Shown here: piece by piece, positions 38,406 through 45,400 of the stretch
Layout: the number at the start of each line of letters is the position of its first letter
How positions within the stretch are numbered: the stretch's first letter is position 1
Origin: Mobula hypostoma
Taxonomy: Eukaryota
Direction of reading: 5' to 3'
Assembly (NCBI RefSeq): GCF_963921235.1
Contig: NC_086097.1
Span: forward strand, 169,882,001 to 169,946,000
DNA: 64,000 nucleotides
Position numbers and translations under genes: made by a program
Notes under the pieces: generated by a model
Database searches by the model: none
Seen by the model: the letters and a program-made list of their open reading frames with translations, nothing else
What the model was told of the DNA's origin: nothing

Positions 38406-38634
38406 TGTGGTAAACCATATATCTGTTGTAACTGGGTTAACTGTCTGGACACACCCCTCTGCCTACTGCCCCTGTGGCTCCTCCCACAGATTCCTGAATA
38501 AAGGTGATTTCACCTTGCCCCTCCCCCTCAGTCCAGGGGCAGACATTCAGCATGGAGGTCGTATTGTACAGTGAATAAAAGCCTTTCAGTATTTTACCCA
38601 GCTTCAGTCTTTTAGAGTTATTGAAGGTGTTTCA
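38406..38634 (+). repeat. Gypsy 5' LTR (229 bp)
   Basis: TGTGG...TTCA termini, AATAAA at ~38574. Near-identical to 40301-40524 and to the reverse complement of ~39345-39573. Confidence 0.9.
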
Positions 38635-38660
38635 ATTTTATTTGCTGTAAATTTTAAAGC

Positions 38661-39209
38661 ATGGAACATGCTCTGAGACCCGACAAGTTAGACCTCGAAC
38701 CGCAAACGCCTGAAGCTGGAAACGCTTTCGAACTCTGGCTGGCCTGCTTCAAAGTGTACCTAGAGAAGATTAAAGCGACCGACCCCGTAGTGAAGCGCAG
38801 AGTTCTACTCTCCAGGGTCAGTCCACACGCCTATTCACTGATCAGAGACCAGCCGAGCTACGATGGTGCCATGAGTGCCCTCAAAGGACAATACCTGCGG
38901 CTGGTAAACAGCGTCTATGCACGGCATCGCTTAGCAACACGGCAACAGCGGCCCGGGAAATCAAGTGCTGAGTTCATCCGAGCCCTACAGACACTTGTAC
39001 TGATGGTGGCGCAGCATGCAGAACTCCTAGTGAGAGACGCCTTCCTCACGCGGACCAGGTCAGTGTATGTGCACCAGCGGCTGTTGGAAAATGCTGATTT
39101 TACCTTAAGTTCAGCGATTGAGCTGGCCAACACACTGGAGGCCGCTCTGCATAACTCTGAGGCTCTCCAGGCACGCGATCCGCTTCGCTACGGGGTCGGT
39201 CCGCTTTAA
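38661..39209 (+). pseudogene. Truncated Gypsy gag
   Basis: MEHALRPDKLDLEP...YARHRLATRQQRPGKSSAEFIRAL...VRDAF resembles retrotransposon capsid motifs and lies just after the LTR. Confidence 0.8.
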
Positions 39210-39573
39210 TCTCCTCTAGGTACGCTTCGAAGTAGGCCAGCCAGAGTTCGAAAGCGTTTCCAGCTTCAGGCGTTTGCGGATCGAGGTCTAACTTGTCGGG
39301 TCTCAGAGCGTGTTCCATGCTTTAAAATTTACAGCAAATAAAATTGAAGCACCTTCAGTAACTCCAAAAGACTGAAGTTGGGTAAAATACTGAAAGGCTT
39401 TTATTCGCTGTACAATATGACCTCCATGGTGAGTATCTGCCCCCGGACTGAGGGGGAGGGGCAAGGTGAAATCACCTTTATTCAGAAATCAGTGGGAGGA
39501 GCCACAGGGGCAGTAGGCAGAGGGGTGTGTCCAGACAGTTAACCCAGTTACAACAGATATATGGTTTGCCACA

Positions 39574-40230
39574 CAAGTGGAGAAGGAGAATGGCACGGTG
39601 TGGAAAGCCACACTTTTAGCCCTCAGGTCAAAGGGACTGCCAGTCTCCCGCTGGCAGGAGGTCCTTCCCGAGGCACTCCACTCCATCCGCTCCCTGTTAT
39701 GCACGGCCACCAATGCCACCCCTCATGAGCGGCTCTTTTCATTTCCCAGAAAGTCAACCACTGGGACCACCCTACCAACTTGGCTGACGTCCCCGGGGTC
39801 AGTGCTGTGCCAGAAACATGCGAGGAGCAATAAGTACTCCCCCATGGTCGAGAGGGTTCACTTAGTTCATGCGAACCCTCAGTATGCCTATGTGGTTTTA
39901 CCTGATGGGCGGGAGGACACGGTCTCCATCCGCGACCTGGCGCCCGCAGGAGCACCGGGCCCCTACCCTGAACACTCCGTGGTGACTATTGACCCCGTAC
40001 CCACTGATATATATACCCATGAGACACCGCACACTCCAAACCCTACACAGACACCACACGACACTCCCATACCGGGCATGGCACACATGCACGAGGGATT
40101 ACCAACACCTAACATGCTGACACCTCAAGTCAGGCCGGAGCCAGCACAACCACTGTCGCCGGTGCAATCACCAACGGTGCTACGTAGATCACAGCGACGG
40201 ACTCGACCGCCTGATAGACTTGACCTGTAA
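39574..40230 (+). pseudogene. Gypsy integrase C-terminal fragment
   Basis: QVEKENG (catalytic E region), IRSLLCTATNATPHERLF, DGREDTVSIRDLAP, RRSQRRTRPPDRLDL; followed by the PPT and LTR. Confidence 0.85.
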
Positions 40231-40300
40231 ATATACTTGTTTTAAATATTGTCAGTCACTTCACCCCGTGGAACTCTTTTTAAAAAAAAGGAGGGGTGAA

Positions 40301-40524
40301 TGTGGTAAACCATATATATGTTGTAACTGGGTTACCTGTCTGGACACACCCCTCTGCTGACTGCCCCGTGGCTCCTCCCACAGACCCCTGAATAAAGGTG
40401 ATTTCGCCTTGTCCCTCCCCCTCAGTCCAGGGGCAGACACTCAGCATGGAGGTCGTATTGTACAGCGAATAAAAGCCTTTCAGTATTTTACCCAACTTCA
40501 GTCTTTTGGAGTTATTGAAGGTGC
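40301..40524 (+). repeat. Gypsy 3' LTR lacking its last 4 nt
   Basis: Follows the PPT and ends GAAGGTGC, where the other copies end GAAGGTG(C/T)TTCA. Confidence 0.88.
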
Positions 40525-41971
40525 CTGTTTAAAACCTCCAGTATTCACCCGAGCTCCATTATGTAGGATCTGATAAAAATAGGATACCAGACTACGAGTA
40601 ACAGGATCAAATTTTTTTAAATGCCTCCAGGGACTCATGTTTGTCTAAAACTTCGAAGTTAGGTATATATTTCCTAACATAATCTCGAATTTGTAAGTAT
40701 CTAAAGAAACTAGATGCAGGGATATTGTAAACTGCTTGTAACTGCGCAAATGAGGCAAAGTTTCCATTAATATATAGGTCACCTACACTGCAGATGCCTC
40801 TCTATTTCCAGGTAGAAAATAACAGTATCATTCAGGCCAGGCAAAAAGGAATGACTGTCACAAATCGGAGTGTCAATATAAGATTTTGGGGCCTTAATGT
40901 GTAGTTGAATCTGCTTGCAAATTCTTATAGTGCTGCCAACCATGAAGCTGTTACTAAAATGTGACTTATTAACTGCAGTGCGGCTGTTAAGGACAGCTGG
41001 TAAGTAAGTCTTCTTACAAAGCACTCGCTATATGAGTAACCATGCTGGGCACGAGTCTGAGGTAGAGGGTGGGCCTTTTTTCCACCATGCGAGAATGGAT
41101 AGGTGGGCAGCCCAGTAATACATTTTAACATTTGGTAGGGCAAAACCACCTGCTTCCTTGGGCTTTGACAAGTGCTTTTTAGTAATTCTAATAGCTTTAT
41201 AATTCCAAATGAAGGGTATAATAATTGAATCCAATTGCTTAAAATATGACAGAGGAATAAAACATGGAATTGACTGGAAAAGATGAAGAAATCGTGGCAG
41301 TACAATCATCATGATTGCGTTAACCCTCCCCACCAAAGAAATTGGAAGGGTTTTCCAAAAGTCAATATTGTGTTTAACCTGCTCAACTTTGTTTCGCCAA
41401 TTCACTTGCAAAGGTTCATCTGGGTTTTTTGTAATAGTCACACCAAGATAGGAAAAATTATCATGAGTTATTTTAAAGGGAATGGACTGTAAATACATTG
41501 TATTAACCACTGCAGTGACTGGCATTAGTTCACTCTTATACCAATTAATAGAGAAACCTGAGAAACTACCAAAGTTATTAATTAGAGTCAGAAGGGCAGG
41601 TATTGATGTTTGTGGGCTGGAGATATATAAAAGGACATCGTCAGCGTATAACGAAAGGTGATGTTTATGTCCATGCATATCAATAGGAGATATCAAAGGA
41701 TCCTGTCTGATGCGAACAGCCAGTGGCTCAATGATAACTGCAAACAAAAATGGAGAAAAGGGGCAGCCTTGACGAGTCCCACGATGAATTGCAAAAGGGG
41801 AGGACATATTCTGATTAGTTATAATAGAAGCAGATGGGTGTGCATAAATTATCTCAATCCATTTAATGAAAGATGGTCCAAATCCAAATTTCTTAAGTGC
41901 AAACATCATATATGGCCACTCCACTTGGTCAAACACACGTTGCGCATCTAATGAAATGACTACAGCCTCTT

Positions 41972-42293
41972 AAAAGCAGGCTTTTTCCACTGAGGCAAGG
42001 GGAGAAAAAAACCATAGGTTAAGGGTGAGGGGGGAAAAGTTTAAAGGGAACATTAGTGGGGGCTTCTTTACACAGAGAGTGGTGGGAGTATGGAATGAGC
42101 TGCCAGATGAGGTGGTAAATGTGGGTTCTTTTTTAACATTTAAGAATAAATTGGACAGATACATGGATGGGAGGTGTATGGAGGGATATGGTCCCTGTGC
42201 AGGTCAGTGGGACTAGGAAGAAAATGGTTCAGCACAGCCAAGAAGGGCCAAAAGGCCTGTTTCTGTGCTGTAGTTTCTATGGTTTCTATGGTT
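41972..42293 (+). mobile_element. Short CR1 3' fragment inserted in the L1 RT
   Basis: GGFFTQRVVGVWNELP; (TTTCTATGG)n tail. Near-identical to the reverse complement of 57876-58198. Confidence 0.9.
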
Positions 42294-44479
42294 TCTTCTG
42301 CATGTTTTGTATATAAAATATTGAAAAGATGACGCAAATTAAAATACATATATCTACCTGGCATAAAGCCAGTTTGATCTGGATGAATAACAGAACAAAT
42401 GCATTCTTTTAACCTATTGGCCAGGACTTTCCCAAGAATTTTGGTTTCAATGGGCAGCAGCGAAATGGGGCGATATGATGAATCCACCTTGGGATCACAA
42501 CCTGGTTTTGGAATCAGAGAAACATTAGCTTTACATAAAGTGGGTGGCAATCTGGAAGCTATCCTAGAGTGATTCAACATTCGTAAGAGCAGAGGTGACA
42601 ATTTTGGACCAAATACTTTGAAGAATTCCATGCTAAAACCATCTGGACCCGCTGCCTTATTATTGGGGAGGGAAGAGATGACCTTCTTGATCTCATCTAG
42701 GCTTATATCAGCATCAAGTATATTTACTGAATCTGTTGACAGCGTGGGCAGATTCAGATTATCAAAAAATGCTACCATAGCTTCAACATCTGGACCGCCT
42801 TGTGATTGGTAAACATTAGCATAGAACTCCGCAAAACACTTATTAATTTTTTCTGGGTCCGTCAATAAAAAGCCATCTTTTGCCTTTATACGATGTATGG
42901 CCCTGGAGGCCTGCATCTGTCTTAACTGACGGGCTAATAACTTATGGAGTTTTTCACCAAGCTCAAAATACCTCTGTCTGACTTGTGTCAGTAGTTTTGA
43001 AACACTCTTGGACATGATAGAATTATACTCATACCGTAAGGCAGTAATCTTATTAAGTAATTCTGCTTCCTGGTTTATTTTGTAAGAAGCTTCCAGATTT
43101 GCCAACTGATCATCTATTTCAGTTAACCTTTTCTTGAATCTTCTTTTTTCCGCTGTCTCATATGCTATTATGCAACCTCTAATAATCGCCTTCATGGCCT
43201 CCCAAAGGGTGGAATCATCAACACCGCCCATATCATTGGTGCTTAAGTATAGATCTATCTTATCTGAAAGATAACAGCAAAAATCCTAACCTTTTAGCAA
43301 AGCATTATTTAAACGCCAACTATATTCACTTCTTTTGTGGTTCAATTTGAGTACAAGTGAGACAGGAGTATGATCCGATATAAGTATATTATGGTAAGTG
43401 CAACTGACTACTGATGAGACCAATTTCGAATCGAACAGAAAATAATCAATCCTAGAGTAGGATTTATATACTGTGGAGAAATATGAAAAATCCTTCTTCG
43501 TGGGATTAAGAAGCCTCCAAATATCCACTATGTTATACGATTGCATGAGATTATTAAGTGTTACACTATTTTTAAGTGAACAACCTTGGGGACGTTGTCT
43601 ATCTAGGAGGGAGTTTAAGATGCAATTAAAGTCTCCACCTACAATTATATTAGAGTCAGACAGATTAGGCACGGCCTTAAAGAGGTTCTGAAAAAAAATT
43701 GGATCATCAAAGTTGGGCCCGTACACATTCACTAGTGTCAATGGTATAGAATTTAATATTCCACTTACTATTACATATCTGTCCCTCAGGTCAGCGATAG
43801 TTTGTGCGTGAATAAATGGTATAGGTTTTTAAAATTAGGATTGCAACACCTCTAGTTTTAGTACTAAAATTCGACTGGTAGAATGAGATGCCCAGGAGGG
43901 ACAAAGCACTTTCGCTGCTGTTTTCTTAATGTGTGTTTCTTGGAGAAAACAAATATCAGCTTTGAGTGTACGAAGAGGTGCATACACCTTCCCTCTCTTC
44001 AGTGGACTATTCATCCCCCGTACATTCCAGCTGACAAGTTTAGTCTCACCAATGCTGTGCATATGTGAATTAGATGTCATATCTGCTGCTTAACAAAAAA
44101 AAATACGCTGTATGGTCGTAGCATAACACGAACAGTAACTCGAACAAATAGATGTGCTGTAACAACCCCTTGAGAAGCACAAAAAACCCTCCCAAAAATA
44201 AAAGCAGACCAGGAGTAGAACTTCCATACCACTAACCTAGAGTCAAAGCTACATCCAAGAGCCAACACATGGCCCGGAATAGCGAGATAACTACCCATTA
44301 CTCACTAAACATGGGAGAAACACCTCTTCACAAATACACTATGAAACATAAAAATAAACAATAACAATCAGTCCTCACCCACATCTTAGTGTGAGCTTAT
44401 TTTTCAGTTCCTCATGCGCTGAACATAATGAACAGTCTCCAGATGAAGCCGCGATCGATCAACAACGAAACCAGTAACC

Positions 44480-45400
44480 CAGCGTTAATCCGTTTTTAGG
44501 TTGATACGGCGTCAGAATGCCAATCTTTAACTTCTCAGCTCAGGAACTCCTTCGCTACGGCTGCAGTGCTGAATGTACTGGTGGTATTGTTAACTGTAAC
44601 CACAAACCTCGCTGGATACCGGAATCCACACCTAATTTTCCTGGCTTTGCATTTCTCCTTAATGTGCTGAAAATCCTGATGTTTCCTCATGGTAGCCAAG
44701 GTTAAATCCGGTTAAATGAACACCGGACACCCGTCATATAGCAGCGGAGCTCTCTCCCTGGACACCTGTAGTGCCAACTCTTTAACCTGGTAGTGGTGTA
44801 GCCTCGCAATAATAGCTCTTGGCCTGCCATTTTTAGCAGGTGCTAGGCTCCGGTTGGCACGGTCCACTTCAATCGGCTAGTGAAAATGTTCTTCCCCCAG
44901 CACTTTGGAAGCAACGTGGCTACAAATTCTGTCGGCTTATTGTTTTCGGCTTTCTCCTGAACCCCGATAATGTGAATGTTTTGACGGCGAGACCGAGCTT
45001 CAAGGTCATCCACCTTAGCCTGTAGCAGTGTGTTTTGGGATATTAGACTTTCAAGCCACCTCTCCAACTCTTCGATTTGCCTCTCAAACAATTCGACTGT
45101 ATCCTCCATTAAAGAAACATGCTTACTGACTTTGGTTAGAGCCACGGTTAGGTTCATGATTGACTTATTATGCTCTGCATGTCTCCCGTCTACCGAACAG
45201 TGCAGCTTGTTTACCACCACAAGGGCTTCTTCAATGGTAGTTGGGACCGGGGCGCTAGCAGCATTGGCTTTAGCTTCTCCTGGGCCCGCTATCTTCGCGG
45301 AACCCTCGCCAGAATCTTCTTCTCCTGTGCCCTTTTCTTGTTTCTTCCCTTTACCAGGCTTCGTAATTTCGTTCAGCCCGTTACAGCTCACTTCAGTCAC
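44480..45400 (-). pseudogene. L1 ORF1 (coiled coil plus RRM-type domain), frameshifted
   Basis: Heptad-like region followed by KVDDLEARSRRQNIHIIGVQE; PRAIIARLH motif downstream in another frame. Confidence 0.85.

Follow-up and report, generated by a model that had tools for sequence, protein, structure and literature searches.

To our knowledge, self-priming of reverse transcription has been shown only in Tf1 of fission yeast, and has been predicted for Tf1 relatives and for some plant Copia elements. In Tf1, the first 11 bases are reported to serve as the primer, with the cut placed between bases 11 and 12 (PMC7175516), and this cut is ascribed to RNase H (PMC7175516, PMC5341516, PMC4600332). 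A copy of the Tf1 primer in a 3' single-stranded tail is reported for about half of the cDNA (PMC11042837). The start site and the self-primer have been described for Tf2 (PMC5341516), and a primer-binding site (PBS) with complementarity to the LTR RNA, for Tj1 from S. japonicus (PMC4600332). Complementarity of the PBS is the reported ground for predicting self-priming in Tf1/sushi elements, Tcn1, and TAR (PMC6317226).

Here we analyze an element from Mobula hypostoma located in a 64,000-nucleotide stretch of DNA (hereinafter, the window). Like Tf1/Tf2, Tj1, the Tf1/sushi elements, and Tcn1, the window family has the Gypsy gene order and an LTR-adjacent PBS complementary to LTR RNA. The element belongs to an animal-wide Gypsy group in which the PBS pairs with the element's own LTR, and the primer is very probably the LTR RNA of the element itself.

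The window copy and its family

The element in the window is a rearranged, dead Gypsy copy, whose features are listed in Table 1. At the position of the putative TATA box, 12 of 28 other copies have a variant of TATA. The inverted copy of the LTR, PBS, and gag start retains both arms of the pairing (39330-39343 and 39399-39412), as had been noticed in the first-pass annotation.

Table 1. Coordinates of features of the window copy.
Feature	Position	Strand	Comment
5' LTR	38406-38634	+	229 bp, TG...CA; ends set from flanks of other copies
TATA position	38497-38503	+	AATAAAG in the window copy; putative promoter role
Initiator-like TCAGTC	38528-38533	+	likely transcription start near A38530 (LTR position 125)
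Primer arm TACAGTGAATAAAA	38567-38580	+	includes AATAAA; putative cut after 38580
Predicted second helix (38581-38590 with 38620-38631)	38581-38631	+	predicted to stack on the primer helix
Single A between LTR end and PBS	38635	+	
Primer-binding site TTTTATTTGCTGTA	38636-38649	+	arm complement, one base past the LTR
gag start	38661-39209	+	disrupted by rearrangement near 39180
Inverted copy of LTR, PBS, and gag start	39202-39573	-	372 nt, 95%
Integrase, C-terminal part	39574-40230	+	without chromodomain
Polypurine tract	40282-40300	+	same tract ahead of 3' LTRs in other copies
3' LTR	40301-40524	+	final 4 bases absent; arm at 40461-40474

Two features adjoin these elements. At 39566-39580 integrase sequence is fused straight to the inverted copy at its U3 end; autointegration, or a nested insertion followed by a deletion, would produce such a join. 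The clipped 3' LTR is followed at 40525-45400 by a minus-strand LINE-like element, labeled by sequence reading only, with long minus-strand frames at 41028-41969, 42140-43828, and 44843-45400.

The family search of the host genome yielded 3152 first-look candidates, the 40 scored ones being 91-100% identical. The element length in 20 longer loci is mostly about 4.2-4.6 kb, and the 5-bp target site duplication (TSD), assessed by eye, is exact in 13 of these loci and has one mismatch in three. Other copies of the family encode Gag with zinc knuckles, followed by PR-RT-RH-IN, that is, the Gypsy order; the TG...CA LTRs, the polypurine tract (PPT), and the 5-bp TSD are those of a Ty3/Gypsy LTR retrotransposon. 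Named homologs are found in cartilaginous fishes (74-89% identity) and in a sea anemone and a nematode (58-59%), with many unnamed metagenome proteins in addition. No relative was found in the viral contigs searched, and the nearest solved relative in PDB, Ty3, is too distant for placement.

For 13 full-length copies (L031-L049), selected by likeness to the window 5' LTR, the difference between the 5' LTR and the 3' LTR within an element is 0.282, compared to 0.291 between elements (21 informative sites), and the overall LTR difference is 7.0% within and 7.4% between elements. The arms of the palindromes described below are closer to each other (0.136 vs. 0.274). Intermolecular strand transfer or gene conversion is a possible source of such unlinked LTRs, and dating by LTR pairs would mislead for copies of this type.

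Conservation and covariation of the arm-PBS pairing

The pairing of the arm with the PBS in the window copy is real and above chance. It comprises 14 pairs, 12 Watson-Crick and two G-U, and a run of at least 14 such pairs was obtained in one of 2000 LTR shuffles, with the shuffle median equal to 7. The 83-nt stretch covering both arms folds at z = -3.45, none of 200 shuffles being equally stable, and the structure can form at the 5' LTR only. The first-pass annotation had placed a 14-nt pairing at these positions and had seen no TGG-type PBS there; re-reading of the sequence and the shuffles bear out the pairing, and no TGG follows the 5' LTR.

One argument made at that stage has to be withdrawn. 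A T/C difference between LTR copies had been taken as a change that keeps the pairing, but in 33 copies the arm CpG and the PBS CpG decay independently: the arm/PBS states are CG/CG in 11 copies, CG/TG in six, CG/CA in four, TG/TG in two, TG/CG, TG/CA, CA/CG, and CA/CA in one each, and others in six. Hence, the difference is CpG decay and not covariation.

The covariation test that had been suggested for the two arms did find compensatory changes, and the covariation is genuine both in a sister subfamily and in relatives. The sister subfamily (L231-L233, located on one contig and counted as one case) is 83% identical in RT-RH and carries two compensatory pairs, the complement being perfect over 13-14 bp; one of these changes is present in L223, in the arm only. 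L151 and L154 are one compensatory pair apart.

Among metagenome relatives, 80 loci were reduced to 38 with the Gag start and further to 36 with enough upstream DNA. A perfect complement of 11-19 bp, starting 1-2 nt past the CA, is retained in 25 of these 36 loci, the shuffle ceiling being nine (20 shuffles per locus); the 25 loci form 18 families, which include close kin (L122-L125) and are not 18 independent cases. Nine of the 11 other loci keep the pair with mismatches, and in the remaining two of the 36 readable loci (L135, L159) no arm-PBS pair was found. In the 25 relatives the pairing is purely Watson-Crick and the cis arm always lies 23-67 nt from the LTR end, and the PBS sequence shifts in step with the LTR of each family. 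In 15 of 19 families, compared to 6.3 expected from shuffled loops, a helix begins immediately behind the arm, and RCC directly follows the arm in 16 of 19. A TGG-starting PBS is absent after the LTR in the family copies examined and in 25 metagenome loci; it is present in three control elements of the same genome (L277, L283, L285), whose self-complement is only 4-6 nt.

Junction products and the source of the primer

Integrated by-products of reverse transcription give a view of the primer. L040 has a 3' LTR that continues through a single A and the PBS into LTR positions 175 to 1 in reverse complement, with a 5-bp TSD flanking the whole. Junction searches of the host genome yielded 40 of 40 scored matches; the exact pattern has 41 matches (none in the reversed control), and the pattern with up to two mismatches, 59. 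Sixty junction loci were examined. Two of them, L327 and L329, turned out not to be genuine and were excluded; the other 58 consist of the LTR, one base, and the PBS, continuing as the LTR reverse complement.

The inverted arm reaches the U3 end in 53 of the 58 loci. Twenty-three loci are stand-alone palindromes of about 405 bp, inserted at unrelated sites, in which both termini are U3 ends and the 5-bp TSD is exact; four more have a TSD with one mismatch. The first 48 loci include 26 stand-alone palindromes (21 with an exact TSD, four with one mismatch, and one without a TSD), six loci that extend past U3 to the PPT and internal sequence, two following a 3' LTR, six with a shortened left LTR, four near-complete ones, and four stopping at LTR positions 121, 124, 126, and 126; among 12 held-out loci there were two more palindromes with an exact TSD and a further stop, at position 123. 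The combination of two U3 termini with an exact TSD marks the 23 palindromes as integrase products of a finished two-ended DNA.

Some palindromes have arms of different subtypes, and are thus compatible with pairing between molecules. Fixed left-right differences confined to R, which had been predicted for the palindromes, were not seen. One young LTR subtype is common to roughly half of the 26 stand-alone palindromes (L061, L063, L065, L067, L070, L073, L075, L076, L078, L083, L106, L111, L114, L121), and many of these may have one source. In L113 and L326 a small segment, LTR 201-229, which is the region of the U5 hairpin, is inverted.

In L051 and L115 the PBS is present behind a 3' LTR, a place at which only copying of the primer can account for it; it runs on into leader sequence, and therefore the primer would be LTR RNA. 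Together, complementarity, covariation, and fossil products support the initial proposal of tRNA-independent priming by LTR RNA.

The fossils also suggest where this RNA begins. Five of the 58 loci leave the LTR at positions 121, 123, 124, 126, and 126 (window-equivalent 38526-38531), about 35 nt upstream of the arm. The probability that five of seven internal departures fall within a fixed 6-nt window is about 3e-6, this window having been set after seeing the data and only the initiator TCAGTC having been named before the census. Two of the loci could have other causes, as L082 has a 7-8 nt microhomology at the exit and L099 abuts another repeat. Two further copies switch template at LTR 148 and about 145, staying on LTR sequence. 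Run-offs at the initiator make it likely that the primer reached the transcript 5' end, at a distance of about 50 nt from the arm's 3' end. Thus the Tf1-like RNA start near 38567 expected in the first-pass annotation is not supported, as the run-offs point to about 38530; the accompanying claim that an upstream start without a cut would leave only masking of the poly(A) signal was too strong, since the fossils show the leader copied within the primer. The TATA motif upstream of the arm was not seen in 16 of 18 relatives, and so the leader length cannot be generalized to them.

At the other end of the putative primer, LTR position 175/176 is joined to an internal site in L069, a single event with a 4-nt microhomology, as would be expected for a mis-jumped strong-stop DNA. 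When LTR pieces beginning at 176 were sought with a forced mismatch, two matches were obtained, compared to one at the control site; this is no enrichment, and neither of the two was a clean junction. In a counterpart search at the start site, which was poorly designed, 30 of 45 matches were read, and all but L080 were point variants or small indels.

We consider it probable that the primer is a capped leader of about 50 nt cut in cis from the transcript's own 5' end. The transcript would start near 38530, as suggested by the TATA and initiator motifs and the five run-offs. The arm would pair with the PBS, and a cut after 38580 would free the capped primer, of which only the last 14-16 bases would be paired. 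By analogy with Tf1, this cut would be made by the RNase H of the element, at the junction of the primer helix and the stacked RCC helix; its position is suggested by the same analogy, by the conserved helix junction, and by L069. The 55-nt minus strong-stop DNA would then jump to the 3' R downstream of the arm. Plus-strand synthesis overrunning the PBS would copy the leader up to the RNA 5' end, and the over-copied tail, being complementary to R, could anneal to another LTR-sense strand or RNA and be extended to U3. Two such strands, or one strand with a PPT-primed partner, would yield DNA with two U3 ends, and integrase would insert this palindrome with a 5-bp duplication. A point against the leader model is that normal copies must stop after 14-16 nt of the 50-nt primer, a stop that the model does not account for.

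The main rival of the cis-cut leader is priming in trans. Here the RNA that anneals to the PBS and is trimmed to the duplex would be either a short LTR transcript made separately or, in a packaged genome, the arm of the 3' LTR. The template then needs no internal cut, and the leader run-offs are accounted for equally well. Six of the first 48 loci pass U3 into the PPT and internal sequence, as a primer from the RNA 3' end would; exchange between molecules is hinted at both by the mixed-subtype arms of palindromes and by the LTRs of full-length copies, which are no closer than random pairs. We nevertheless regard this scheme as unlikely, since the helix located exactly after the arm and the adjacent RCC fit a cis junction, L069 begins at 175/176, and the distance of the cis arm from the LTR end is invariably within the range given above.

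Rather improbable is a strict Tf1 geometry, with the RNA starting at the arm, a primer of 14-16 nt, and all palindromes arising from PBS DNA snapping back on the arm. It would make a special stop signal unnecessary, DNA fold-back explains the inverted arms reaching the U3 end, and Tf1 itself is reported to use its first 11 bases (PMC7175516). The five exits at LTR 121-126 are not predicted by it, however, no TATA is found 25-35 nt ahead of the arm, and the TATA and initiator motifs, 33 nt apart, lie upstream of the arm.

Very improbable, in our opinion, is that the principal role of the hairpin is to mask the 5' poly(A) signal, the primer being some host RNA or a tRNA fragment. The structure is restricted to the 5' LTR, and the arm covers AATAAA or ATTAAA in the window copy and in nine of 18 relatives; in the other nine the signal is missing from the arm, and L125 has an uncovered AATAAA downstream of it. 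The comparison with host tRNAs covered one isotype, tRNA-Lys(TTT), whose variants match the PBS over at best 3 nt by Watson-Crick pairs and 7 nt with G-U; besides these, the tRNA survey gave two intron calls that were spurious. Rfam gave nothing near threshold, and a conserved host RNA cannot track a PBS that changes with the LTR of each family. The purely Watson-Crick pairs beginning 1-2 nt past the CA, and the PBS copies behind 3' LTRs that run on into leader sequence, also argue against a host primer. Masking, which had been put forward as a possible function, is therefore not supported as the main role, given the nine arms without the signal, and is at most a secondary one; for roughly half the families, hiding or removing the 5' AATAAA would be an added gain. 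Separately, a dense cluster of tRNA-Lys(TTT) genes (L296-L319) is located at 4.0-4.3 Mb of contig C90 in the host genome.

Finally, template switching during host replication can be favored by short inverted repeats, and the palindromes could on that ground be host rearrangements at the inverted repeat after insertion, uninformative on priming. This is hardly credible in view of the 23 palindromes described above and is ruled out for TSD-flanked ones by their U3 ends and exact duplications; it may apply to individual complex loci, for instance L079 or L099.

Placement and comparison with known systems

The self-complementary elements group as a single clade in the RT-RH trees, with support 100/100, and this clade joins the TGGCGACGAG-PBS elements at 95/88, at a point where long branches meet. 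The RT-RH sequences are about 28% identical to those of TGGCGACGAG-PBS elements and 25-30% identical to those of chromodomain elements of the same genome. The final tree comprised 22 of 44 rows, including two chromovirus rows, no Tf1, and no named Mag sequence; L277 and L283, on a long branch, were used as Mag stand-ins, and L280 and L281, which gave no RT, were excluded. Forcing the clade together with two chromodomain-type elements costs 3.84 log units and is not rejected (AU p = 0.112).

No match to a chromodomain or SH3_Tf2-1 was found at the integrase C-terminus in P0002, P0003, and five homologs; such domains are present in L279 and L282 of the same genome. This agrees with the initial reading of the integrase as lacking a chromodomain, and the suggested separate lineage is also supported, as the chromodomain elements of this genome differ from the clade in RT-RH identity and the clade has the tree support given above. 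By domain content the clade is not a member of Tf1/sushi, and an independent origin of self-priming is likely.

Other elements of the host genome differ in layout. The chromodomain/SH3_Tf2-type elements L279 and L282 have their own self-complement of 7-8 nt located 224-231 nt before the LTR end, a sushi-type layout. L276, L278, L285, and L286 are Gypsy elements, with the long frame ending in RNase H in L276, L278, and L285 (Gmr1-like order); L285 has a TGG-type primer site.

The broadest reading, which we hold to be evenly balanced, is that a large animal Gypsy clade, apart from chromoviruses, has evolved its own capped-leader self-priming, with the cut at a two-helix junction just past the poly(A)-signal arm, and that over-copying of the primer routinely yields integrated two-U3 palindromes, seen as recurrent inverted repeats of about 405 bp and as a fossil map of the start site. 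If true, tRNA-free priming would have arisen or persisted more widely, with a second lineage that is widespread in animals and differs in geometry. The clade might then also be beyond the reach of PBS-directed tRNA-fragment silencing.

The integrated by-products provide in vivo evidence, without an assay, on the primer sequence and its likely 5' end, and show that a DNA whose ends are both U3 is accepted by integrase. They also account for one class of MITE-like palindromes and make clear why annotation tools that rely on the PBS would overlook or mislabel the clade. In the literature covered, which did not extend to subscription journals and Repbase Reports, no description was found of self-priming in non-chromoviral animal Gypsy elements or of these palindromes; the supplements of mollusc and annelid surveys (PMC6238403, PMC8556966) may name this clade.

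Compared to known systems, the window family differs from Tf1/sushi chromoviruses in the absence of a chromodomain or SH3_Tf2-1 and in the RT-RH divergence given above. With Mag A/C and CsRn1 it shares short LTRs, two Gag zinc knuckles, and the absence of a chromodomain. Mag elements use TGG-type tRNA sites, and the window family differs from Mag and CsRn1 in having no tRNA site. Its LTR start, TGTGGT, resembles the motif TGTGGYG reported for CsRN1 (PMC3601003). Self-priming in TAR, Houba, and Osr-1 is likewise predicted from PBS complementarity (PMC6317226), but these are plant elements of the Copia superfamily, and for them it is a prediction only. Troyka, like the window family, is an LTR lineage of aquatic animals, and is described as having CG...CG ends and 3-bp TSDs, in contrast to TG...CA and 5-bp TSDs here (PMC12440569). 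The genome census of junction fossils and the clustered stop site are new here.
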